In this document: positions 4,492 through 28,745 of the stretch, piece after piece
Layout of the letters: the number at the start of each line of letters is the position of its first letter
Position numbering within the stretch: position 1 is the first letter of the stretch
Source: Nanobdellota archaeon
Lineage (GTDB): Archaea; Nanobdellota; Nanobdellia; SCGC-AAA011-G17; JAFCDX01
DNA length: 56,583 nucleotides
Direction of reading: 5' to 3'
NCBI GenBank assembly: GCA_040753775.1
Contig: JBFMDT010000001.1
Span: 1-56,583 of the forward strand
The notes under the pieces: generated by a model
Seen by the model: the letters and a program-made list of their open reading frames with translations, nothing else
What the model was told of the DNA's origin: nothing
Databases searched by the model: none
Position numbers and translations under genes: made by a program

Positions 4492-4579
4492 GGCGGCATT
4501 AGTTTAGTGGCAGAACGTACGGCTGTGGAAAGTCAATTGCAGTTCCCGTACAACGTGGGTTCGATTCCCACATGCCGCC
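4492..4579 (+). tRNA. tRNA-His(GUG) with encoded G-1 and a 16-nt intron (4529-4544) at 37/38
   Basis: Acceptor GCGGCAT/ATGCCGC, anticodon stem TACGG/CCGTA, GTG at 4525-4527, T arm GTGGG-TTCGATT-CCCAC; BHB with central helix CUGU/GCAG and bulges GGA and UUC. Confidence 0.93.
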
Positions 4580-7658: not shown

Positions 7659-9545
7659 ATGAAAAAAAGGGTGTATATGCTTCTCCTGTTGCTGATATTG
7701 CCTGTTGTTTCTGCTGAGCTGTCTGTTACTTCTCAATTAAGGGACACCTACAACATAGGCGACAAACTGATCCTGGAGGGCAGTGTAATTTCGGATGCAA
7801 CAGATGGAACTTTAAGCTTTATTTTACACTGCGAAAATACAAGCATACAAATAGCAGCGCAAACAATACAAATAAACCAAGAGACAGCCTTTTCCCAGCA
7901 GGTTCAGATTCCGGGCTTAATGAACGGCACTTGTAACATATATATTAACCTTATAACTAATACAACAGAAACAGTATCAACTTTCCAGTTTCTTATAACA
8001 AAAAGACTTGAAGGAAATTTTGAAATAAATAAAAATGAATTTCAGTTGGGCGATGATATAACAATAACAGGAAACATACAGAAGCTTGATGGTTCTGGGA
8101 CAACAGGCTCTGCTACAATATACCTAAAAAAGGATGGCATGAATTATAAAATAGAAAATGCTGATTTAAACAATAATTTTACTTACAATACCAAGGCTGT
8201 TGCAATACCCTCCGGGCAATACAGTGTAGATGCATCAATAGTAGACCAAAGTGGGAATGAAATGTACTTCACAGATGTACTAGCCTTTGCTGTTTACAAT
8301 GAACTTTATGTTAATGCCATTCTATCAAAAGACTCATATTTACCAGAAGAGACAATTAACATAAATGGGACTGTAACAAAAAAACTTGGATCAACCCCAA
8401 CTACAATAAATATAAAATTAACTATAGACAATAAGACTTACATCCTTAACAGCACCTCTTTTTCATTTAGCCTGAAACTTGATAAAAATATTAAATCAAA
8501 CCAGCATGAAATAAGTATCTATGCAGAGGATGAGTTTAGGAATATAGGAACAAAGAGCATTGGTTTTAATGTTATACCTGTTCCGACAAAACTGGAGTTA
8601 TTGACAGAAAAACAGGAATACCTGCCATCAGAAACAGCAGTGATAACAGTCAATCTTTATGACCAGGCTAATGACTTACTTGAAAAAGAAGCTTTCCTTA
8701 GGGTGATTAATCCAAAATACAAAACAATAACCAAGGAAAACATAACCACAAAGAGCCCATTTAACCTTAAGCTTGCAGAATCAGCATCCCCTGGAGAATG
8801 GACTATACTAGCAACGTCCGAGGGCTTAAATGCAAACCTTGATTTCACAGTTAAGAAATTTGAGGCAATACAAGCAGCAGTAAATGGCCAGATTGCAAAA
8901 ATAAAAAACATAGGCAATGTGAAATACCTCAACAGCGTAGACATTATCGGCAATGGAAAAACAGCAACCAAATGGGTCTCGCTTGATATAGGTGAAGAAA
9001 CAGAATTTGATCTGGCAAAATATTTTGATACAGGGACTTACAGCATAAACATAGCAGGCAACCAATTTGAGAATATAGCTGTAACAAATGATAAAAATCT
9101 TGTTGAAAAGGCTTTTGACAGGGTTTATGATGTAACTGGAAATGCTGTCTTAAAAAGCGAGGACTTTCTTATAAAAAATAACATTCCTGGAATTTTCTTT
9201 ATTTTTATACTTGCTGGGCTTCTTACTTACACAATATACAGGGGAGGCCTGATAATAAGGCAAAGGAGCAAGCTAGGCAGTGTAAAAAAAGAGATTAAAT
9301 ACAGCCCAAGAAGAGAGCCCGAAATTGAAATAAGGAATTACGGGCAGATACCATCTCCGAAGTATAGTTTTGGCCATGCAACAGAAGATGACATAAAGGA
9401 CTTCAAAAAGATAATGTTTAAGAAAGTAATGCCTGAAGAGGAAATCAAAAAGTCCTATTACTTTGAAAAGCCGCGAGAGCGCAGAGAATATAAAATAAAA
9501 GAAAGTTCGGAAGAAAACAAGGGTCTCTTCAGCATGTTTGACTAA
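7659..9545 (+). CDS. Exported, membrane-anchored beta-sandwich repeat surface protein with cytoplasmic tail
   Basis: Signal peptide; repeated K..Y.P/G(D/E)..I.G modules (MG2/Ig-like); TM helix near residue 510-530. Confidence 0.75.
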   Translation: MKKRVYMLLLLLILPVVSAELSVTSQLRDTYNIGDKLILEGSVISDATDGTLSFILHCENTSIQIAAQTIQINQETAFSQQVQIPGLMNGTCNIYINLITNTTETVSTFQFLITKRLEGNFEINKNEFQLGDDITITGNIQKLDGSGTTGSATIYLKKDGMNYKIENADLNNNFTYNTKAVAIPSGQYSVDASIVDQSGNEMYFTDVLAFAVYNELYVNAILSKDSYLPEETININGTVTKKLGSTPTTINIKLTIDNKTYILNSTSFSFSLKLDKNIKSNQHEISIYAEDEFRNIGTKSIGFNVIPVPTKLELLTEKQEYLPSETAVITVNLYDQANDLLEKEAFLRVINPKYKTITKENITTKSPFNLKLAESASPGEWTILATSEGLNANLDFTVKKFEAIQAAVNGQIAKIKNIGNVKYLNSVDIIGNGKTATKWVSLDIGEETEFDLAKYFDTGTYSINIAGNQFENIAVTNDKNLVEKAFDRVYDVTGNAVLKSEDFLIKNNIPGIFFIFILAGLLTYTIYRGGLIIRQRSKLGSVKKEIKYSPRREPEIEIRNYGQIPSPKYSFGHATEDDIKDFKKIMFKKVMPEEEIKKSYYFEKPRERREYKIKESSEENKGLFSMFD

Positions 9546-9968: not shown

Positions 9969-10168
9969 AAGTAACCAAAAAAACCAACATAAACAAATTA
10001 ATTGAAAAATACCCAAAAGCAGCCCGAATTATGTTTAAGCATGGCCTGCATTGCGTAGGCTGCTATGTTGCTGCTTTTGAGACAATAGAGCAGGGTGCAA
10101 GGGCTCACGGTATGGATAAAAAAACAGTTGGTAAGATGCTGAGGGAGCTGAATAGGACTGTAAAATGA
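9965..10168 (+). CDS. DUF1858 / hybrid-cluster-associated redox disulfide domain protein
   Basis: GLHCVGC..A.FETIEQGARAHG. Confidence 0.85.
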   Translation: MKVTKKTNINKLIEKYPKAARIMFKHGLHCVGCYVAAFETIEQGARAHGMDKKTVGKMLRELNRTVK

Positions 10169-11349
10169 GCATCTATCTTGATTATGCTGCAGCAACTTAT
10201 GTAAGGCCTGAAGTAAAGAGGGCTATGGACAAATATTTTTCAAAGGAGTTTGGAAACCCAAGCAGCTTCAACACAATTGGCTTAAATGCAAAAAATGCTG
10301 TTGAATCGTCAAGGGAGAAAATTGCAAAGGTAGCGGGTTGTTCTCCAAAAGAGGCTATATTCACTGGAAGCGGAACTGAAAGTATAAACCTTGCCATTAA
10401 GGGTGTTGCATTTGCCATGAAAAACAAAGGTAAGCACATAATAACAAGCAAGGTCGAGCATCATGCTGTCTTGAATACATGCAAGTACCTTGAAGAAAAA
10501 GGGTTTAATATAACTTATCTTGATGTTGATAAATATGGCATGGTTAATTCTAAAGATGTTGAAAAGGCCATAAAAAAAGATACAATCTTAATAACAATAA
10601 TATATGCAAATAATGAAATTGGGACAATAAACCCGATAAGCGAAATAAGTAGAGTAGCAAGAAAGCATAATATTCTTTTTCATACAGATGCTTGCCAGGC
10701 AACAGGCTTTCTTGACATAAATGTAAATAGGCTTAATGTAGATTTGATGACAATAAATTCAGGAAAAATATATGGACCTAAAGGCATAGGCTTGCTTTAC
10801 ATAAGAAAAGGAACTATAATAGAACCTTTAATTCATGGTGGTGGCCAGGAGTTTGGCTTAAGGTCAGGCACTGAAAATGTTCCTTATATTGTTGGGTTTG
10901 CAAAGGCCTTAGAACTTGCTGATAAAGAAAAAAATAAAGAATCAAAAAGATTGCAAAGGCTTAGGGATAAGTTAATAGAAAAACTGTTGAAAATCCCGAA
11001 AACTATATTGAATGGACATCCCCAAAAAAGATTGCCTAACAATGTAAATGTAACCTTCCTTGACATAGAAGGAGAGGCTTTATTGCTTTTGCTTAATGAA
11101 CATGGCATTTATGCAGCAACAGGAAGTGCGTGTGCTTCTGAAAAACTTGAGCCAAGCCATGTTATTCTAGCTATTGGCTTGCCTTATGAAGCTGCGCATG
11201 GAAGCATAAGATTCAGCCTTGGGAAAAAGACAACAAAGGAGGACATAAATAAGGTTGCCGATGTTCTTCCGAAATTAGTTGAGAACTTAAGATGCATTTC
11301 TCCTGTTAATGTAAAAATGAGCACAATAAGGAAGTTGATGAAAAGATGA
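10165..11349 (+). CDS. iscS: Cysteine desulfurase (IscS/NifS, group I)
   Basis: YLDYAA, SGKIYGPKG PLP lysine, GSAC catalytic Cys. Confidence 0.95.
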   Translation: MSIYLDYAAATYVRPEVKRAMDKYFSKEFGNPSSFNTIGLNAKNAVESSREKIAKVAGCSPKEAIFTGSGTESINLAIKGVAFAMKNKGKHIITSKVEHHAVLNTCKYLEEKGFNITYLDVDKYGMVNSKDVEKAIKKDTILITIIYANNEIGTINPISEISRVARKHNILFHTDACQATGFLDINVNRLNVDLMTINSGKIYGPKGIGLLYIRKGTIIEPLIHGGGQEFGLRSGTENVPYIVGFAKALELADKEKNKESKRLQRLRDKLIEKLLKIPKTILNGHPQKRLPNNVNVTFLDIEGEALLLLLNEHGIYAATGSACASEKLEPSHVILAIGLPYEAAHGSIRFSLGKKTTKEDINKVADVLPKLVENLRCISPVNVKMSTIRKLMKR

Positions 11350-11978
11350 AAAAATATGATATTAAATCAGGAGCAAAAGGATGGTTTTATTCAAGAACAG
11401 TAAAGGAGCATTTTTTACATCCTAGAAACTTTTTGACCAAAGACAAAGAAAAGAAGTACAAGGCTGATGGTATTGGTTATATCGGAAGTGTGGCGTGTGG
11501 AGATGTCATGCAGGTTTGGATAAAAGTAGACAGGAAAAAGGATGTTATTAAGAATATGAAATGGAGAACTTATGGTTGTGGGAGTGCAATTTCATCTACA
11601 TCAATGCTTTCAATTATGGTCAAAGGCATGAAAATAAACAAGGCGCTTAAAATAAAGCCTCAGGATATAATAAAAAAGCTTGGTGGACTGCCTGCCAGAA
11701 AATATCATTGCTCTGTTCTTGGAGACAAAGCACTAAGAGATGCGATAAATGATTATTTCAGAAGAACAAAGCAATTTAACAGAATAATTGCAGAAGGAGC
11801 CAGAATTATTGATCCAACAACGAAAACAACAGACAAAGACATAGAAAAGGCTGTGAAAGAAGGAGCAGTTACTTTGCAGGATGTCCAGAAAAGATTGAAA
11901 GTAGGGATAGGCAATTTAAAAGTGATTCCTGAAGTAGAGCAGTTAATAAGGTTTTATAAAAGAAAGTACTCTAAGTAA
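11346..11978 (+). CDS. iscU: Fe-S scaffold IscU/NifU-N fused to a degenerate BFD-like domain
   Basis: ACGD, GCGSAI and KYHCS scaffold cysteines; C-terminal BFD-like segment has no Cys. Confidence 0.9.
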   Translation: MKKYDIKSGAKGWFYSRTVKEHFLHPRNFLTKDKEKKYKADGIGYIGSVACGDVMQVWIKVDRKKDVIKNMKWRTYGCGSAISSTSMLSIMVKGMKINKALKIKPQDIIKKLGGLPARKYHCSVLGDKALRDAINDYFRRTKQFNRIIAEGARIIDPTTKTTDKDIEKAVKEGAVTLQDVQKRLKVGIGNLKVIPEVEQLIRFYKRKYSK

Positions 11979-12873
11979 CCTTAATTTTTCTTTTTAATTC
12001 GCAGACTTTGCAAATTTCAGATGATGTTGGCTCCTTACAGAGTTTGCATGAGCCAATGTTTTCTTTATACTTTTCTTTCAGCAATAGCAAGATCTCTAAA
12101 AAAGAATTAACTATTGAATACTTTGTTCCAGGGTGCTTGCTCTCAAAATCGTTCAACAAATTTCTGACATGAGCCCTGAACGTGCTTAGGGAATATGGGC
12201 ATTCGCTGAATTTTATGGGATACTTCTTAAGCAGGGCATACAGGGCTGTTTCTTTCTCTGTCAAAAAATACAAAGGCTTTATTCTTGGAACAAATCTTTT
12301 GTCTCTTATTATACCAGTTATTGGTCCTAGCCTTGCTGAAGTTTCAAGATTGTCCCTGAAGTAATTCATAACGATGCTCTGCGCTTCATCATCCAAATTA
12401 TGACCTGTTGCAAGTTTATCAGCCTTAAGCTTCCTTGCATACTTGTTTAATATATACCTCCTGAATACTCCACAAACAGAACACGGCATGAACTTGAACT
12501 TCTTAATAAGCTTGTCCAACGTATACCCAAACTCGTCCTTGAAGCTTACTATGCTTAATTTTATCTTATTTTCCTTGCAGTATTTCTTTAAATTTTTTAA
12601 GTTTCTATAACCTTTAATCCCCTCGTCTATGGCCAATGCACTCACTTTAAAGTACCTTCTTTCTCTACTTAATTTATGCAAGATATTCAATGCAATCATA
12701 GAATCCTTTCCAGAACTTACACCAACAATAATATTGTCATTTTTTCCTATCAAATTGTATTTAGAAATTGTTTTTATAACCTTTTTTTCAAAATACTTAA
12801 TAAAACAGCTCTTGCACAGCCTTCTTCCGCTTATCAGTTCAATTACAGGCTTTGTCTTGCAAAACTTACACAT
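11971..12873 (-). CDS. ttuA: tRNA 2-thiolation protein (TtuA/Ncs6 family)
   Basis: N- and C-terminal Zn fingers, PP-loop SSGKDS, CSVCGVFRR, GHNLDD, CPY. Confidence 0.92.
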   Translation of the reverse strand: MCKFCKTKPVIELISGRRLCKSCFIKYFEKKVIKTISKYNLIGKNDNIIVGVSSGKDSMIALNILHKLSRERRYFKVSALAIDEGIKGYRNLKNLKKYCKENKIKLSIVSFKDEFGYTLDKLIKKFKFMPCSVCGVFRRYILNKYARKLKADKLATGHNLDDEAQSIVMNYFRDNLETSARLGPITGIIRDKRFVPRIKPLYFLTEKETALYALLKKYPIKFSECPYSLSTFRAHVRNLLNDFESKHPGTKYSIVNSFLEILLLLKEKYKENIGSCKLCKEPTSSEICKVCELKRKIKVT

Positions 12874-12874
12874 G

Positions 12875-13066
12875 TCAACCACCAGATATAACAGAATGGA
12901 CAGTTATTTTATCATTTCTATTTAATTTTTTGTCCTCTGTAACAATCTCACCATTAATGCTTACTAGCACAGTAGTTGGGTTTAGGTTTAGTTTCTCCAA
13001 AAGTTCTCTGATACTTCTTGCATTTGCATTAACACTTTTATTTGTTCTTTCAATATAAACCTTCAT
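12875..13066 (-). CDS. Ubiquitin-like sulfur carrier (ThiS/MoaD/SAMP family)
   Basis: 63 aa ending VISGG. Confidence 0.93.
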   Translation of the reverse strand: MKVYIERTNKSVNANARSIRELLEKLNLNPTTVLVSINGEIVTEDKKLNRNDKITVHSVISGG

Positions 13067-14013
13067 TTTAAATACCTGTCAAAAATACTCCTGGCTTCTT
13101 CTTTGCTGTTGGCCTTTACAAGTACCCTGTCATTAAAAGCAATAACGTTCTCAAAACTAACATGATAGGCTGACTTAACCACCCTACCAAGCCTAGTGAA
13201 TCTTTTTTCAAGCTCATTCAGGTTATTTCTGCATTTTATTTGGTAAGTATTTGTCCCGCAGTACTTAACAAGTTCGCTTCTTTTTTCTCCAGTTAGGTAT
13301 TCAAATTTCTTGTTGCACACAGGACAATCCTTCTGCCTGTTTACTTTGTTCTTAACCAGCTTGTTAGTCCATATGTCGTAATGAATAAGCTCTTTGCTAT
13401 AGGGTTGTTTTGTGAGGAGCTTTATTGCTTCTGTAGCCTGCATTGCTGAAATAACATTTGGAATAGTGTTTAAAATCCCTTCCGTATCACATGTTCCAAG
13501 CAGGGCTGTCGGCTCATTAAAAACACATCTAAAGCAGGCAGTTTTTCCAGGGACTATGTTCATAACCATTCCGCTGCTTCCAATAACAGCAGAGTATATC
13601 CATGGAATCCTTTTTTTTGCAGCATACTCATTAATCAAAAATCTTGTTTCGAAATTATCAGTGCAGTCCAGAAGTATATTGCCTTTGGCTAAACTGCTTA
13701 TGTTTTCGTAATCTAGATCATCAACATAAGCCTCTATGTTAATATCTTTATTTATGCTGCTAAGCCTCTCTTTAGCAACAATCGCCTTTGATTTGTTTAT
13801 ATCATGCTCTGTGAACAGTTTCTGCCTTTGCAGGTTATTCAGTTCAACAATATCCCGGTCTATTAACACTAAATTAACCCCGGCCCTTGCTAACAACTCT
13901 GCAGAAATGCTCCCTATGGCTCCAACACCAACAACAACTGCTGTGCTTTGCTCTAGTAACCTTTGTTTGCTTTCCCCAAGCTTCTCAAATATTATCTGCC
14001 TTAAGTATCTCAT
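13063..14013 (-). CDS. ThiF/MoeB/E1-like adenylyltransferase
   Basis: GVGAIG, DRD.VEL.NLQRQ, DCTDN, CFRC and CPVC zinc motifs. Confidence 0.93.
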   Translation of the reverse strand: MRYLRQIIFEKLGESKQRLLEQSTAVVVGVGAIGSISAELLARAGVNLVLIDRDIVELNNLQRQKLFTEHDINKSKAIVAKERLSSINKDINIEAYVDDLDYENISSLAKGNILLDCTDNFETRFLINEYAAKKRIPWIYSAVIGSSGMVMNIVPGKTACFRCVFNEPTALLGTCDTEGILNTIPNVISAMQATEAIKLLTKQPYSKELIHYDIWTNKLVKNKVNRQKDCPVCNKKFEYLTGEKRSELVKYCGTNTYQIKCRNNLNELEKRFTRLGRVVKSAYHVSFENVIAFNDRVLVKANSKEEARSIFDRYLK

Positions 14014-14097
14014 TTCATCTCCTAAACTATTTTACGAAAGATTTTTAAAAGGCATGTTTTAGAAAGAAATATAAATTTTTAAATCTATGCTTTGCAA

Positions 14098-15981
14098 ATG
14101 AATATACAAAAAATAATTAAAAGAGTAGAAAAGTATGATAAAAAGGCAGATTTAGCACTTATTAAAAGGGCTTATGAATTTGCCAAAGAAGTTCACAAAG
14201 GCCAGAAAAGGATCTCCAATGAGTCGTATATACAGCACCCCTTGAATGTTGCGATGATTCTTGCCAACTTAAAGCTTGATGACAAAACAATTGCTGTAGC
14301 CCTTCTTCATGATGTAATAGAAATGTCTAATCTGACAATTGATAGGATAAGAAAGGAGTTTGGGGGTGAAATAGCACTAATTGTGGATGGGGTAACAAAT
14401 ACAGAAAAAATAACATCCAATTATAGGGCTGAAAATATTAAGAAATTCCTTGTTGCTACAATAAAGGACATTCGTGTAATATTTGTAAAACTAGCTGATA
14501 GACTCCACAACATGCGCACCTTAAAATACTTAAGCAAAAGCAACCAGGAAAAGATAGCAAAAGAGGTTCTTGAAGTGTATGTTCCGTTGGCTTATCGCTT
14601 GGGGATGTGGAGCATAAAAAATGAGCTTGAGGACCTTGCACTAAAATACCTTGATCCAAAGGAGTTCAATAAATTAAAAAGGAGAATAAATGAAATAGCA
14701 AAAGATGGGAAGAAAATTATAAAGCTTAGCAAGAACATGCTTAAAAGGGAGTTAAGAAAAAATAAGATTAAAGCAGTGATTTACAGCAGAATAAAACACC
14801 CTTACAGCATATACAATAAAACAATCAGGAAAAATAATAGGCTTGAGGAGATTTATGACATCTTAGGCTTAAGGGTAATTACAAACAGCATAGAAAATTG
14901 TTACATAATTCTTGGATTAATACACAACTTATGGAAGGCTATACCGGGGACTCTAAGAGATTATATATCAACACCAAAATCCAACATGTATCAGTCCTTG
15001 CATACAACCGTAATTGGACCAGCCAACAAACCAGTAGAATTCCAGGTAAGGACAAAAGAAATGCATGAAACAGCAGAGGAGGGGGTAGCAGCTCATTGGG
15101 CGTACAAGGGAGTAACGAGCACCGAGGATTTTGATAAAAAGCTCTCCTGGATAAAACAAATACTTGAATGGAAACGCGATTCAAAAGACGACATCAAGCT
15201 TGAGTTATTCGAGGATGAGATATTTATCTTTACGCCGAAGAAGGATGTAATTGAACTGCCAAGCGGCTCATCTGTAATTGATTTTGCATACGCTGTTCAT
15301 ACCAGCGTTGGGGATAAGGCTGTTGGTGCTGAAATAAACAATAGATTCATGCCCCTAAAAACAGAGCTGAAGAACGGGGACATAGTAAGGATAATAACAT
15401 CTAAAAATAAAACTCCATCAAGGGAATGGCTTAAGTTTGTAAAAACGCAGAAGGCAAAAGAGAAAATAAAAAAGGCAATAAAATTAAAGCAGAATATACC
15501 AATCAAGAGCATATCAAAAATAGAGGAAAAAAGGCAGGAGTACAAGAACCTTATAAGCTCCTCCATTAGTATAAAGAACCTTGAAATAAAAATATCTGGG
15601 TGCTGCAAACCCCTTCCAAACGATAAGATAATTGGGATAAAAAGGGGCAATAAATTGATGGTGCATAAGCAAAATTGCGAGTTCATAAAAGACAACAGCA
15701 ACAGGATAAGCATAAGCTGGGTTCAAAATGTGCCTTCCCTAGTGGAGTTAAGCATAGAGGCTATAGAAAGGCCCGGGATAATCAAGGAAATTTTGAATAT
15801 CATAACCTCAGAAAAGATGAATGTTAAAACAACAAAAGCGAAGCCCATCGGTAAGGAGCTTATAAAATGCACACTTATCCTGGAATTAAGCAGCTTGGAA
15901 AAAATAACAAAATTAATTGAAAAGCTAAAAAAGATAAATAAGGCTAGAGATGTTTACATAGCAGAAGCAAAAGCATTATAA
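14098..15981 (+). CDS. rel: Long RelA/SpoT homologue (HD-SYNTH-TGS-ZFD-ACT)
   Basis: LHDV, KLADRLHNMRT, RIKHPYSIY, YQSLHTTV, EFQVRT, AAHWAYK, DFAYAVHT, CCKP...H..NC, C-terminal ACT. Confidence 0.95.
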   Translation: MNIQKIIKRVEKYDKKADLALIKRAYEFAKEVHKGQKRISNESYIQHPLNVAMILANLKLDDKTIAVALLHDVIEMSNLTIDRIRKEFGGEIALIVDGVTNTEKITSNYRAENIKKFLVATIKDIRVIFVKLADRLHNMRTLKYLSKSNQEKIAKEVLEVYVPLAYRLGMWSIKNELEDLALKYLDPKEFNKLKRRINEIAKDGKKIIKLSKNMLKRELRKNKIKAVIYSRIKHPYSIYNKTIRKNNRLEEIYDILGLRVITNSIENCYIILGLIHNLWKAIPGTLRDYISTPKSNMYQSLHTTVIGPANKPVEFQVRTKEMHETAEEGVAAHWAYKGVTSTEDFDKKLSWIKQILEWKRDSKDDIKLELFEDEIFIFTPKKDVIELPSGSSVIDFAYAVHTSVGDKAVGAEINNRFMPLKTELKNGDIVRIITSKNKTPSREWLKFVKTQKAKEKIKKAIKLKQNIPIKSISKIEEKRQEYKNLISSSISIKNLEIKISGCCKPLPNDKIIGIKRGNKLMVHKQNCEFIKDNSNRISISWVQNVPSLVELSIEAIERPGIIKEILNIITSEKMNVKTTKAKPIGKELIKCTLILELSSLEKITKLIEKLKKINKARDVYIAEAKAL

Positions 15982-16003
15982 ATAATTAAAATAACCTCTT
16001 CAT

Positions 16004-16627
16004 ATGTTTGACAGATTCAGCCTGCTTAAAAAGACGCTGCAAAGAAATGGATATGACACCCCTATGCTTAAGAATGATGAAGCAACATTGAATGAAGTAG
16101 AAAGCAGCTTAAAAAACAAGGGCATAAAAATACCGAAGGCAATAATAAACCCAAATATAACAAAGGCCCAGCTTTTAAATTTACTAAAAATATTTCTCTA
16201 TACCTTTTCTGTTGTGTTGTTTATTTTGATATTTATGTACATAATAAGCACAGCAGTTGAATTGACAGTGTTGAAGGAGGTGCTGCTCCTGGTTGGGATT
16301 AATCTGGACAATATCCTTTCTGCTGCAATAAAAATATTTGTGATATTGTTCTTGGTTAGTATTGTAATTGGTGCAATGATGGTTTATGTTAATCTGTACA
16401 AAAAGACAATATATTTTTACAACAATGAGATTGAGTATTATGAAAAGGGAAACTATCAGGCAATACCCTACAAGGATGTTGTTTCTGTCAATTACTCAAA
16501 AAATTTCTTTAAGGGTGATTCTCTGATACTAAAGCTTACTGGCGGGGAGCAGAAGATAGAGGTGAACTTTGTCGATGATGTAGAAGAGAAATGTAGGAGG
16601 CTTAATGAAATTGTGAAGTCAAGCTAA
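16004..16627 (+). CDS. Membrane protein with C-terminal PH-like domain
   Basis: Two TM segments followed by a beta-rich IPYKDVVSV region. Confidence 0.65.
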   Translation: MFDRFSLLKKTLQRNGYDTPMLKNDEATLNEVESSLKNKGIKIPKAIINPNITKAQLLNLLKIFLYTFSVVLFILIFMYIISTAVELTVLKEVLLLVGINLDNILSAAIKIFVILFLVSIVIGAMMVYVNLYKKTIYFYNNEIEYYEKGNYQAIPYKDVVSVNYSKNFFKGDSLILKLTGGEQKIEVNFVDDVEEKCRRLNEIVKSS

Positions 16628-17947: not shown

Positions 17948-18718
17948 ATGGCAGATTCAAAAACTATGATTAGGGGACTGGATTCAATAGAGATAGTTAT
18001 TGAAGATGAGCATAAAAATATCATACCAAAACAGATTACATACCCAACAAAATTGAGGTATTATGCAACAATATTTTCTTATGATTTGCCAAAAGAAAAG
18101 GTTGAGATATTGAACAGCAAACAGCCTGACAGAACAAGGGCCTTTGTCTCAAATGACAGCTATATTTTTAGCTGCATGCTAAGATTAGAACTTAAAAATA
18201 ATTACATAATCCCGGTAAGCTATTCTTTTGATCTTCTAAAAATACTTATGGAAAAAGAAGAAAAAAGAATGTCAACAAGAGGTAATATAATCGTGGGCAG
18301 GAACAGTGAAAATGCATTCAATGATATAGACATAGCTGGCGGGATTGAAAAATTTTTGGATGATTATGAAAGAGTGAAAGGCAAAACTAATGTTGACATT
18401 GGCGATATAAAAACATTTCTTTCTTATACATCAAGAAGGCAGGCAAATATATATGTTGAAAATGATAAATTTTATATCAAAAACCTAAGCAAGAATGGCA
18501 CAACAAGAATTAGGTTTCCAAAAATAGGTTTAAAGGAAATAGAAGTAGCAGATTGCAATGCTAAAACAAAGCTTATTGAAAATGGCGAATATCAGGCATG
18601 TGTTTCGTTTGGATTGCCAATAACAGATTTTAATGGAATAAAAGGGCATAGCTTAATAATGGTTATATCAAAAAATGAATTGATTTCAGGGATAAAAAGT
18701 ATAGAATACCTGAAGTAA
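17948..18718 (+). CDS. Putative FHA-domain protein
   Basis: IVGRN...SRRQA...NLSKNGT pattern. Confidence 0.65.
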   Translation: MADSKTMIRGLDSIEIVIEDEHKNIIPKQITYPTKLRYYATIFSYDLPKEKVEILNSKQPDRTRAFVSNDSYIFSCMLRLELKNNYIIPVSYSFDLLKILMEKEEKRMSTRGNIIVGRNSENAFNDIDIAGGIEKFLDDYERVKGKTNVDIGDIKTFLSYTSRRQANIYVENDKFYIKNLSKNGTTRIRFPKIGLKEIEVADCNAKTKLIENGEYQACVSFGLPITDFNGIKGHSLIMVISKNELISGIKSIEYLK

Positions 18719-20512: not shown

Positions 20513-21010
20513 ATGAAAGTAATTTGTATTACTGGCTCTGTAGCATCAGGAAAAACTACATTGGCAAAAAAACTGACCAAGAAATTAAAAGCTAATTACA
20601 TTGATATTAATAAATTAATTCCTAAATATAAGCTGCAAATAGGCTACGATAAAAAGTACAAGAGCAGGATAATAGATTTAAGAAAACTGAAAAAGGTTCT
20701 GATATCTGTAATTAAAAAAAGTAAAAACAGTTTGGTAATAGATTCTCATCTTAGCCATTACATTCCAGCAAAATATAGTGATTTATGCATTGTTACAAAA
20801 TGCAATTTAAGAGAGCTGAAAAAAAGATTAATTAAAAAAGGCTATTCAAAGGAAAAAATAAGGCTTAATCTGGATGCAGAAATATTTGATATTTGTTTGG
20901 TAGAAGCCCTGGAAAATAAGCATAAAGTTTTTGTAGTAAACACGGACAGAAAATACGACATAAATAAGATTGCAAAAATTATTAAAAGTGGCAGACGTGC
21001 CCAAAGGTAG
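20513..21010 (+). CDS. Adenylate kinase AK6/Fap7 family
   Basis: ITGSVASGKTT, IDSH, LKKRL..KGYSKEKI..N..AEIFD. Confidence 0.88.
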   Translation: MKVICITGSVASGKTTLAKKLTKKLKANYIDINKLIPKYKLQIGYDKKYKSRIIDLRKLKKVLISVIKKSKNSLVIDSHLSHYIPAKYSDLCIVTKCNLRELKKRLIKKGYSKEKIRLNLDAEIFDICLVEALENKHKVFVVNTDRKYDINKIAKIIKSGRRAQR

Positions 21011-21261
21011 ATATAAACACCAATTACCAGCTACCCCCAACTCTTTCTTAGCTTCGTTACCCTATAAACGCCAGATAATTATGATAAATGTTGCTCTGTT
21101 CCCAGCCTAACATGGTTCACATAACATTGGCTCTACAGGACAAAGCCTCATTGTACAAGCCAGGACTGATAAATAATGCCATACCGTCCAATGAGCTTCA
21201 ACCCCAACTAAAGCCCGTTGTTGGTTACAGGTCAGGGCTAGCGACCCGGTCTAAGTCTGCC
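20990..21261 (-). ncRNA. ffs: Archaeal SRP RNA (7S), about 272 nt
   Basis: Terminal helix GGCAGAC/GUCUGCC; Alu-domain UGUAA motif; helix 8 AUGUUAGGCUG-GGAA-CAGAGCAACAU; TATA TTTAAAAA about 25 nt upstream. Confidence 0.92.
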
Positions 21262-21314
21262 TTAATTTATTATAAACCGCTATTTTTAAATCTTACTAAA
21301 ATAATAAAATAATC

Positions 21315-25929: not shown

Positions 25930-26018
25930 GCAATATTCAGCTACAAAAAAGTTATAAACCTTTCTAATATTTTAACATGAATCAAAAGCTTTTTAAACAT
26001 ATGATTATGGTAAAAAAT

Positions 26019-26513
26019 ATGCCTGAGGAAAAAATAAAGCACATTGTAAGGCTGATAAATACAGACCTAGGTGGCAATAAGCAGCTTTATAATGCCTTAA
26101 CCAAGGTTAAAGGTGTAAGCTACAGCTTTGCCAATGCAGTGTGCAACGTGGTGAATATAGACAAGGCAAAAAAGATAGGCATATTGACAAAGGAGGAACT
26201 TGCAAAAATAGAGGATGCAATAAAAAATCCTTCAAAATACAGCATTCCTGCATGGCTTTTTAACAGGAGAAAGGATCTTGATACAGGCAAGGACATTCAT
26301 TTGCTTACATCAGATCTAAGCTTAAGGACAGAATTTGACATAAAAAATCTTAAAAAAATAAAGTCCTACAGGGGTATCCGCCATGCAATGGGGCTTCCTG
26401 TAAGAGGGCAAAAGACAAGGGCTCACTTCAGAAAGGGAGCTGCCCTTGGAGTACAAAGAAAGAAAGTCCTAGCAGCACAAAAGGCATCTAAAACAGAAAA
26501 GAAAGAGAAGTAA
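26019..26513 (+). CDS. rps13: 30S ribosomal protein S13
   Basis: NRRKD, SYRGIRHAMGLPVRGQKT; exact start uncertain. Confidence 0.96.
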   Translation: MPEEKIKHIVRLINTDLGGNKQLYNALTKVKGVSYSFANAVCNVVNIDKAKKIGILTKEELAKIEDAIKNPSKYSIPAWLFNRRKDLDTGKDIHLLTSDLSLRTEFDIKNLKKIKSYRGIRHAMGLPVRGQKTRAHFRKGAALGVQRKKVLAAQKASKTEKKEK

Positions 26514-26514
26514 A

Positions 26515-27069
26515 ATGGGAGATCCAAGAAAATTAAAAAAGAAATACAAAACACCGTTTCACCCATGGAAAAAGGAAAGGATAGAAAAAGAAAGGGAAAT
26601 CCTTAAGGAATACGGCTTAAAGAACAAAAAAGAGATATGGAGAGCAGAATCAAAGCTGAAAAAATATACAAGACAAGCAAAAAGGCTTATCAAGGGCATA
26701 GGAAAGCAAACAGAAATAGAGCGCAAGCAGATGATTTCAAGCTTAAACAGGTTGAACTTAATTGCTGAAAATGCGAAGCCTGAAGACGTGCTTAACTTTG
26801 GTATTAAAAACATACTTAACAGAAGGCTGCAGAGCTTTGTGTGCAGATTAGGCTTGGCAAGGTCAATGAAGCAGGCAAGGCAGTTCATAACCCATGGCCA
26901 TATTTTTGTAAATGGGAAAAAAATAAATGTTCCGTCCTACATAATTAAAAAAGACGAGGAAGATAAAATAACATTTAACCCAAGCTCTTCGCTTTCAAGC
27001 CAAGAGCATTCTGAAAGAAGCTTAAAAGAAGAAAAAAAGGAAACAGTTAAAGAGGAGCCTAAGGAATAA
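26515..27069 (+). CDS. rps4: 30S ribosomal protein S4
   Basis: [27 protein letters not shown]. Confidence 0.96.
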
Positions 27070-27070
27070 A

Positions 27071-27466
27071 ATGGCAGAAAAATTGAGATGGGGAGTAGCT
27101 CATATCTACTCAAGCTACAATAATACAATAATTCATGTGACAGACATAACTGGATCAGAAACAATTAGCAAGGGCTCTGGTGGCATGGTTACAAAGGCGC
27201 ACAGATTAGAGAGTTCGCCAACAGCAGCAATGGGGGCAGCAAAAATAGCAGCTGAAAGGGCTCTTGAAAATGGCATAAATGCTGTCCACATAAAGGTAAG
27301 AGCACCTGGCGGCCACAATGGCCCAAGCTCTACAGGCCCTGGAGCAAATGCAGCGATAAGAGCCTTGGCAAGGGCAGGTCTTAAAATAGGCTCTATAGAA
27401 GATGTTACCCCAATACCAACAGATGCTTGCAGAAAGAAGGGAGGAAAGAGAGGCAGAAGAGTATAA
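27071..27466 (+). CDS. rps11: 30S ribosomal protein S11
   Basis: [26 protein letters not shown]. Confidence 0.96.
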
Positions 27467-28254
27467 TGGAAATTGAAATTTTAAACAAAGGTAAGGAAAA
27501 ACTAAACTTTATTCTAAAAGACATAAACCCAAGTATAGCAAATACACTTAGAAGAATTATGACATCAGAAGTTCCGGTAATGGCTATAGATGATATAAGC
27601 TTCACAAAAAACAGCTCTGCGCTTTATGATGAGATATTGGCATTGCGCTTTGGCTTAATACCTTTGAAGACAGACCTTAAGTCCTATGAGCTTAAGGAAA
27701 AATGCACGTGCAAAGGCGAGGGCTGTGCAAAGTGCCAGCTTAACCTAAAGCTTAACTGCAAGGGCCCGTGCACTGTTTATGCTTCTGATCTTAAAAGCCA
27801 GGATCCAAAGGTCGAGCCTATTTTTTCAAAAATGCCTATTGTAAAGCTTTTAAAGAACCAGGAGCTTGAGCTTGAGGCTGTTGCAGTGCTTGGTAAGGGA
27901 AAGGCTCATGCAAAATTCAGCCCGGGGCTTGTTTATTACAAAGGATACCCTAAAATAAAAATAGCAAATAACCTAAAAAATCCTGAAAAATGCCTTAATA
28001 TCTGCCCTGTTAATGTATATGAAATAAAAGACAAAGTGCTTAGGGCAAAAAATATTACTAACTGCACCCTATGTAATGCTTGTGTCGAAGAGGCGGATCC
28101 TAGTGGCGCAATAGAAGTAACAGGCTCTGAAAAAGATTACATATTTTACATAGAGTCATGGGGGCAGCTCACTCCAATAGAAATATTTACAGAGGCATTA
28201 AATATGTTTGATGAAAATCTTGATGAATTTGCAGCAAAATTGAAAAAGGCTTAA
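27466..28254 (+). CDS. rpoD: RNA polymerase subunit D (Rpo3) with ferredoxin-like insert
   Basis: ANTLRR, HAKFSP, CLNICP and CTLCNAC. Confidence 0.95.
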   Translation: MEIEILNKGKEKLNFILKDINPSIANTLRRIMTSEVPVMAIDDISFTKNSSALYDEILALRFGLIPLKTDLKSYELKEKCTCKGEGCAKCQLNLKLNCKGPCTVYASDLKSQDPKVEPIFSKMPIVKLLKNQELELEAVAVLGKGKAHAKFSPGLVYYKGYPKIKIANNLKNPEKCLNICPVNVYEIKDKVLRAKNITNCTLCNACVEEADPSGAIEVTGSEKDYIFYIESWGQLTPIEIFTEALNMFDENLDEFAAKLKKA

Positions 28255-28280
28255 ATATTAGTAAAGCTCTGGCACAGTAA

Positions 28281-28375
28281 GCGGGTGTGCCGGAGTGGTC
28301 AAACGGGCATGGCTAAGGCAAAGGTAGAAACCATGTGGCTTAGTGCCTACGCAGGTTCGAATCCTGTCACCCGCA
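28281..28375 (+). tRNA. tRNA-Leu, anticodon AAG, with an 11-nt intron (28319-28329)
   Basis: Acceptor GCGGGTG/CACCCGC plus A73, long variable arm, anticodon stem CATGG/CCATG, T loop TTCGAAT; located between rpoD and rpl18e. Confidence 0.85.
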
Positions 28376-28382
28376 GTACAAA

Positions 28383-28745
28383 ATGGCAAAAAGAACAGGT
28401 CCAACAAACCCAATAACAAAAAGGATTGTAATAGCCCTAGAAAAGGCAGGCCGAAAGGAAAGGGTTAATTTATGGAAAAGAATCGCTTATGAGCTCCAAA
28501 GACCAAGGCGCCAGAGAAGAGAGGCAAACCTTTCAAAAATAAACAAATATGCAAGAGAAAATGAGATTGCTTTAGTGCCTGGAAAGGTTCTTAGCAATGG
28601 GCAGCTTACAAAAAAGATTACAGTAGCAGCATTAAGCTTTTCAAAAAGTGCAGAGGAAAAAATAAACAAAATTGGAAAGGCGATAACAATACAACAATTG
28701 CTAAGGGAAAACCCAAAGGCAAGAAGGGTAAGGATAATAGGTTAA
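28383..28745 (+). CDS. rpl18e: 50S ribosomal protein L18e
   Basis: TGPTNP, NLSKIN, VPGKVL. Confidence 0.95.
   Translation: MAKRTGPTNPITKRIVIALEKAGRKERVNLWKRIAYELQRPRRQRREANLSKINKYARENEIALVPGKVLSNGQLTKKITVAALSFSKSAEEKINKIGKAITIQQLLRENPKARRVRIIG

Follow-up and report, generated by a model that had tools for sequence, protein, structure and literature searches.

According to Sajish et al. (2009, PMC2666561), an RxKD motif marks the bifunctional Rel enzymes and an acidic motif of the ExDD type marks RelA. In the account of E. coli RelA given by Loveland et al. (2016, PMC4974054), the alpha-helical (AH) domain comprises residues 485-580 and two linker helices connect it to the TGS and ribosome-intersubunit (RIS) domains; H432 of the TGS domain intercalates in the tRNA's CCA end, and the RIS and ACT domains anchor at bridge B1a (A-site finger, S19 and L16). 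The absence of long RelA/SpoT homologs (RSHs) was still given as an archaeal trait by Atkinson et al. (2011, PMC3153485). Jimmy et al. (10.1101/575399) distinguish 13 subfamilies of long RSHs. Li et al. (2021, mSystems, PMC8407392) report RelA/SpoT in 69.0% of the Diapherotrites, 41.7% of the Woesearchaeota, 21.3% of the Pacearchaeota and 19.0% of the Nanoarchaeota, and predict that the DPANN proteins were acquired from Bacteria. Here we describe a gene for a long RSH, located at positions 14098 (ATG) to 15981 on the plus strand of a stretch of 56,583 nucleotides (the window) from a Nanobdellota archaeon (assembly GCA_040753775.1, contig JBFMDT010000001.1). The gene encodes a Rel-type long RSH, and the analysis establishes its identity, domain make-up, residues, clade membership and residency in the genome. 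Going by sequence comparison, we consider it probable that the protein is a synthetase-competent archaeal Rel, one of a clade that derives from Bacteria and lacks the AH core, and that its hydrolase is probably impaired. Specific to its own lineage is the change from ED to EM in an otherwise intact hydrolase site.

The open reading frame is intact and codes for 627 amino acids (aa). An alternative in-frame TTG start at 14092 would yield 629 aa, and the protein on record (P0001) is identical to the 627-aa form. From the N-terminus onwards, and with all coordinates on the plus strand, it comprises an HD (hydrolase) domain (aa 25-171, 14170..14610; Pfam HD_4, PF13328, 6.9e-43, and residue comparison), a synthetase domain (aa 230-338, 14785..15111; RelA_SpoT, PF04607, 6.6e-41), a TGS domain (aa 375-434, 15220..15399; PF02824, 1.3e-20), a zinc-finger or RIS domain (aa 486-545, 15553..15732; recognized by alignment with 8fr8 and by C502, C503, H523 and C527) and an RRM-like ACT domain (aa 549-619, 15742..15954; ACT_4, PF13291, 3.2e-10, and the strands and helices of the model). 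The four Pfam matches each exceed their cut-off. With the NCBIfam model TIGR00691 (spoT_relA) the protein reaches 634.7 bits, above the cut-off of 499.2, whereas the equivalog models for SpoT (NF008303, 465.4 bits versus 947) and RelA (NF008124, 369 bits versus 728) both stay below theirs. The protein did not group with the ExDD-type bacterial sequences in a FastTree phylogeny. The closest solved structure by sequence is B. subtilis Rel (6yxa, E 5.4e-138), and a second aligned stretch in M. smegmatis Rel (8fr8, residues 661-792) covers the zinc finger and ACT domain (residues 497-621 of P0001). The top structural matches of an AlphaFold2 (AF2) model based on a 48-row alignment (pLDDT 80.0, pTM 0.58) were RelA 5iqr, Rel 6yxa and SpoT 7qpr. 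As a whole, the model was best matched in Foldseek by E. coli RelA (5iqr_8, E 3.5e-40), and its catalytic half resembles S. aureus Rel (7oiw_A) with a target-normalised TM of 0.96 and an rmsd of 1.7. A preliminary description of this stretch, made from the letters alone, had proposed a multidomain RelA/SpoT enzyme in an archaeal genome and had read its motifs as HDVIEM, TLRD and AVHT. Both the domain content and the residue-by-residue alignment with 6yxa bear this out, and the TIGR00691 score agrees.

The synthetase site is fully conserved. R231, K233, K241, D254, R259, Y298, H302 and E314 are all present in P0001 and invariant in the 48-row alignment, as are H401 of the TGS domain and C502, C503, H523 and C527 of the zinc finger. 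H401 lies in the motif AVHT (15292-15303) and aligns with H420 of Rel (6yxa), so the earlier reading that synthetase motifs and TGS histidine are intact was correct. The roles of these residues are partly those that we take to be established for RelSeq and B. subtilis Rel, with the numbering mapped through the alignment with 6yxa. We extended the comparison to a set of 103 clade sequences of at least 560 aa, which includes 18 rows fetched for their low TIGR00691 scores. The eight synthetase residues (RKKDRYHE) are intact in all 103, the TGS histidine is likewise found in 103 of 103, and the CCHC set of the zinc finger in 102. Synthesis of (p)ppGpp is the function that conservation supports best; judged from its residues, the protein would most likely transfer pyrophosphate from ATP to GDP or GTP. 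At the position of the RxKD/ExDD motif (aa 285-288, 14950..14961) the alignment with 6yxa gives TLRD where Rel has RFKD, the first arginine being lost and the lysine replaced by arginine, and this sequence conforms to neither RxKD nor ExDD.

One could suppose that the gene is a remnant of an ancient transfer, without catalytic activity and about to disappear. Indeed, no RSH gene was found in six of the eight genomes searched in its family f1 (G001, G002 and G004-G007), and the hydrolase motif is altered. We nevertheless consider a relic very improbable: the frame is open across 627 codons, the lineage that carries the EM motif retains the gene down to 59% identity, and the conservation just described, in the query and near-universally in its 103 relatives, extends to the eight synthetase residues, the TGS histidine and the zinc finger alike.

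In the HD domain, seven of the eight site residues are kept, namely R38, H47, H71, D72, E75, D134 and N138. R38, H47, H71, D134 and N138 are invariant in the 48-row alignment, and D72 and E75 nearly so. The motif HDVVED of Rel is changed to HDVIEM (14308..14325), which places M76 at the position of D82 of Rel in the alignment with 6yxa; it is the only departure among the catalytic residues checked. The same methionine is found in P0002 (76% identity; HDTIEM, with GLKD at the RxKD/ExDD position) and in the genome G003 (59% identity; HDTLEM and TLKD), and because both share it we regard M76 as a fixed trait of the lineage and not as an error. The ED diad has been called invariant among RSH hydrolases and was proposed to hold a second metal (PMC11554896). 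The same source reports that the E82Q mutant of A. baumannii SpoT is dead, and that its D83N mutant performs poorly with Mg2+, while Mn2+ activates it only in the millimolar range and without saturation, a partial rescue. In view of the broken diad and of the behaviour of this mutant at the same aspartate, the earlier suggestion of a weak hydrolase is a reasonable one: with Asp changed to Met, hydrolysis would probably be weak, more dependent on Mn2+, or lost.

Decay of the hydrolase site is a recurrent feature of the clade. The HD set is intact in 66 of the 103 sequences, has lost one residue in 8 and at least two of the eight residues in 29, a count biased by the inclusion of the 18 low-scoring rows. 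All of those 18 copies, which come from the families f40, f22, f54, f12, f39 and f43, have lost at least two of the eight HD residues and have kept all eight synthetase residues. In a phylogeny from which the HD columns had been excluded, the HD state changes at least 7 times between intact and two or more residues lost, and at least 10 times when any loss is counted. All five of the genomes with such a pseudo-HD form that were examined (G183, G121, G187, G279 and G285; 94-100% complete) were without another HD_4 match above the cut-off, which leaves them with a synthetase and no RSH-type hydrolase. Within this series P0001 would represent an early stage toward the pseudo-hydrolase, RelA-like state that other families in this clade have reached. 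In this respect it is noteworthy how the RxKD/ExDD position varies. The acidic, ExDD-type motif goes together with an intact HD set in 23 of 27 cases (clade loci L005-L045 and L128-L145; proteins P0002-P0268), whereas 22 of the 29 pseudo-HD forms keep the basic (RxKD) motif; the rows are kin, and these counts stand for few events. This pairing is the reverse of the rule described for bacterial Rel and RelA by Sajish et al. (2009, PMC2666561).

Several observations weigh against an impaired hydrolase in P0001, besides the bias in the clade count. The HD domains of the EM proteins are no more diverged than those of their relatives (mean identity to the clade 0.51-0.53 versus 0.524 +/- 0.045), and a search for relaxed constraint in the EM lineage, in terms of identity to the clade, revealed none; the domain is thus constrained even now and could have kept some hydrolysis. 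The genome (G000), which is 82% complete, yielded no further HD_4 or RelA_SpoT domain, so that a dead hydrolase would leave the cell with no RSH-type removal of the alarmone. In the same 82%-complete genome two NUDIX genes are present and Ppx/GppA was not found. Moreover, the D83N mutant of SpoT is substantially activated by Mn2+ and regains activity at millimolar concentrations (PMC11554896). Together with the seven retained site residues and an HD domain as conserved as in the ED relatives, these points would be expected of an ordinary bifunctional Rel with an adequate hydrolase, in which E75 and Mn2+ cover for the missing aspartate. Yet this seems rather unlikely to us: methionine is unable to ligate a hard metal, where asparagine partly can, the diad is described as invariant among RSH hydrolases (PMC11554896), and the clade loses its hydrolase site repeatedly, which implies that hydrolase loss is tolerated there. 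Moreover, G003, which has the same EM motif, possesses a separate small alarmone hydrolase. We therefore keep to a synthetase-competent Rel with a probably impaired hydrolase as the preferred reading.

The stand-alone protein of G003 (L016; G003:C1, minus strand, 10-678) is 222 aa long, consists of an HD domain only, is of the small alarmone hydrolase type and has the motif HDAVED. A similar HD protein of 191 aa is encoded in G026 (L018). No counterpart of either was found in G000. A further genome of the class, G167, has two long RSH matches, at C13:2889-4289 and C49:5689-7026 (625 and 501 bits), and may hold an intact and a pseudo-hydrolase copy side by side.

The second peculiarity concerns the region between the TGS domain and the zinc finger, of which a remnant of about 50-66 aa is left (15400..15552). 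From the end of the TGS domain to the zinc finger the spacer measures 66 aa in P0001 and 61-67 aa in 45 archaeal rows, compared with 138-144 aa in six bacterial Rel proteins. In the alignment with 8fr8 the unaligned stretch is 36 residues long versus 114, and about 75 residues of the AH region are missing in the archaeal clade. PF19296 (RelA_AH_RIS) found no match in the protein, and is present in the listed bacterial relatives of at least 700 aa. The AF2 model has only three short helices, 442-446, 451-465 and 475-479, between the TGS domain and the strands of the zinc finger. Among 231 sequences the spacer length is bimodal, with 60-69 aa in 78 and 120-159 aa in 133 of them, and 11 sequences with spacers of 48-98 aa fall outside the clade in the FastTree phylogeny, scattered among bacterial forms. 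The strong shortening, and the overall length of about 627 aa, had been recognized in the preliminary description; it stands as a property of the whole archaeal clade and not as a peculiarity of this gene. A bacterial Rel, L051, has a similarly short spacer of 76 aa. AH shortening is thus not exclusive to archaea, and by itself is no evidence for the proposed adaptation to an archaeal ribosome. It may even be that the shortening predates the transfer.

By analogy with E. coli RelA, the element that is lost would be the contact with the body of the tRNA, the CCA sensor and the anchor being retained, and synthesis would be controlled by the remaining TGS, zinc-finger and ACT domains. The differences between the ribosomes of archaea and bacteria, and the absence of the AH core, could both suggest that the C-terminal part no longer reads the ribosome and deacylated tRNA, and that these three domains serve only to switch the enzyme internally or to bind a metabolite or a different protein. 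Such a ribosome-independent trigger is possible, though on the unlikely side: the elements of direct contact, the TGS histidine and the CCHC set of the RIS domain, are invariant in the clade, and L051 provides an example of a comparably short spacer in a bacterial Rel. Since this alternative concerns the trigger only, it is compatible with the synthetase-competent Rel that we favour.

The phylogenies place the protein among archaeal copies. In the FastTree phylogeny 86 short-spacer sequences, without a single long form between them, form one branch (support 0.986) that holds P0001 and all 36 copies fetched from archaeal genomes. A quick IQ-TREE run of 65 rows (LG+G4), in which named bacteria were included, recovered an archaeal clade of 25 rows with an SH-aLRT value of 98. 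In the latter tree the internal split of the clade tracks taxonomy (same order versus same class), and P0001 groups with P0002 and G003 with a support of 100. Such a pattern is consistent with a single ancient acquisition and subsequent descent and loss. The trees suggest that the RSH clade would be of bacterial origin and would have been inherited within the class Nanoarchaeia, whose metagenome-assembled genomes (MAGs) are labelled Woesearchaeota or Nanoarchaeota, with loss of the AH core. We name no donor, as the deep FastTree branches around the clade have support values of 0.14-0.89. The sole sister of the archaeal clade in the 65-row tree is the long-branched bacterial Rel L051 (SH-aLRT 91); possibly it represents a donor-like lineage, or its position results from long-branch attraction. 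L051 (L051:3992-5956) encodes a Rel of 654 aa, and its contig, labelled Marinifilum sp., also carries bacterial SecD, SecF and DprA. In the same tree, the RSH of L048, labelled 'MAG: bacterium', nests among the copies of Woesearchaeota, and this bin is probably mislabelled.

The gene resides in an archaeal genome. The window makes up the initial 56.6 kb of a contig of 128.9 kb, and G000 as a whole counts 698 kb on 28 contigs, with an estimated contamination of 1.26%. Archaeal markers are found within 12.4 kb and 5 kb on the two sides of the RSH gene: a thermosome gene (82-1707), an archaeal signal recognition particle (SRP) RNA (20989-21262, minus strand; Rfam RF01857, 127.5 bits), genes for the archaeal-type ribosomal proteins uS13, uS4, uS11 and L18e (25977-28745) and an archaeal DnaG (33879). 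These confirm the archaeal character that had been ascribed to the flanking genes. GC content is even across the window, with a value of 0.349 at 14001-16000. In G003, an independent assembly from the same family, a PP-loop ATPase (68.8% identity), the RSH, a DUF6672 protein (50.7%) and a DJ-1 protein (70.2%) are kept together. In complete or near-complete genomes the RSH gene lies deep in large contigs (for example G040 C1:490810, G049 C1:991005 and G220 C1:896744).

What could speak for bacterial contamination or an assembly chimera is that the nearest characterised relatives are bacterial, namely Rel of thermophilic Clostridia, sharing about 50% identity in the N-terminal three quarters. 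The flanking archaeal markers, the even GC content and the conserved gene order make a chimera very unlikely indeed. The low estimated contamination argues against it as well, as does the presence of the clade in 136 of the 301 genomes sampled from the phylum, some of them consisting of one contig, and we attach practically no weight to this explanation. The chimera envisaged earlier as a refutation of the archaeal RSH is contradicted by G003, where an independent assembly has the same neighbours.

Long RSHs are widespread in the phylum. They were detected in 136 of the 301 sampled genomes (E <= 1e-50), 132 of them exceeding the TIGR00691 cut-off, and one-contig genomes such as G049, G210 and G220 are included. 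Among genomes of the same order, 13 of 41 have a TIGR00691 match above the cut-off. Database relatives at 44-49% identity and of 616-651 aa are, where named, annotated as bifunctional (p)ppGpp synthetase/hydrolase or as GTP diphosphokinase, and their organism labels read archaeon, Nanoarchaeota archaeon or a Candidatus name cut short. Four members of the clade lie on contigs whose titles read Candidatus Woesearchaeota archaeon, Nanoarchaeota archaeon or Candidatus Nanoarchaeia archaeon. A locus search with six query-specific peptide patterns, which is not a census, returned 80 loci, mostly bacterial and 4 of them labelled archaeal. The gene is consequently not the unexpected archaeal exception for which it had been taken: in addition to the genome counts, DPANN RelA/SpoT is in print (Li et al. 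2021, PMC8407392), and with the database annotation the presence of long RSHs in DPANN is already known. In the literature searched, supplements excepted, which may name an archaeal subgroup, we found no description of the AH-core deletion, the repeated decay of the hydrolase or the EM intermediate.

Upstream, the RSH gene has a divergent neighbour of the ThiF family, encoding an E1-like protein (13063..14013, minus strand; Pfam ThiF 5.6e-68). Of 40 archaeal RSH loci, 9 have a gene of the ThiF type next to the RSH in this divergent arrangement. Downstream, 23 nt past the RSH stop codon, lies a gene for a membrane protein of the DUF6672 type (16004..16627, plus strand; Pfam), an adjacency that is kept in G003. 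A TATA-like box, tataaatt (14070..14077, plus strand), was read from the sequence 28 nt ahead of the ATG. The box would be compatible with an archaeal promoter and a leaderless or short-leader mRNA, in DNA that is AT-rich.

The ThiF-type gene is part of a sulfur-relay-like cluster that adjoins the RSH gene (window positions 10165-14013) and further comprises a cysteine desulfurase (10165-11349), NifU (11346-11978) and a PP-loop ATPase with CxxC pairs (11971-12882, minus strand, like the E1 gene at 13063-14013). The cluster may serve tRNA thiolation; a link to the sensing of tRNA by the RSH is speculation. Two tRNAs were identified in the window by Rfam, at 4493-4579 (87 nt) and 28281-28375 (95 nt), while ARAGORN reports none. 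Introns are common in archaeal tRNAs, and these two probably carry them. Finally, a 256-aa reading frame (17948-18718) had no Pfam match, and one of 628 aa (7659-9545) had a sub-threshold MG2 match only.

A wider interpretation, which we consider unlikely and offer as a conjecture, is that the Nanoarchaeia have an alarmone system freed from the bacterial rules, with starvation sensed on an archaeal ribosome by a minimal C-terminal region (TGS, a single linker, zinc finger and ACT) and with a hydrolase that was discarded in successive lineages without an RSH-type replacement. If this were true, some further enzyme would have to clear (p)ppGpp or whatever else is made, or the product would have a function different from that of a reversible internal alarm, and in the EM form of P0001 this decay would be seen at its first step. 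Independently of this conjecture, the clade provides a clonable candidate for asking whether some archaea make an alarmone, and it is suited for asking whether a bacterial ribosome-sensing factor that lacks most of its AH region can function on archaeal ribosomes. As its ED diad carries just one naturally occurring substitution, P0001 lends itself to probing what that aspartate does.

When compared with described systems, the DPANN RelA/SpoT proteins of Li et al. (2021, PMC8407392) belong to the same gene family and the same organisms; the passage concerned gives presence counts only and says nothing of the AH deletion, of the motif variants or of the EM change. The D83N mutant of A. baumannii SpoT (PMC11554896) is altered at the same position of the ED diad, with an asparagine introduced in the laboratory in place of a methionine that is natural and fixed. 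The Rel proteins of the Bacillota, such as those of B. subtilis (6yxa, 6htq), S. equisimilis (RelSeq, 1vj7) and S. aureus (7oiw), share with P0001 the domain order HD-SYNTH-TGS-ZFD-ACT (ZFD being the zinc-finger domain), the synthetase residues, the metal ligands of the HD domain and the TGS histidine. They differ in having ED instead of EM, RFKD instead of TLRD and about 75 residues of the AH region that are absent here, and in that the host of P0001 is an archaeon. E. coli RelA (5iqr, 5kpv), a monofunctional (hS) enzyme, has a thoroughly degenerate HD domain, an ExDD motif and a full AH region, whereas P0001 has seven of the eight HD residues, TLRD and a short AH region. Possibly the two nevertheless share an outcome, namely synthesis without effective hydrolysis.

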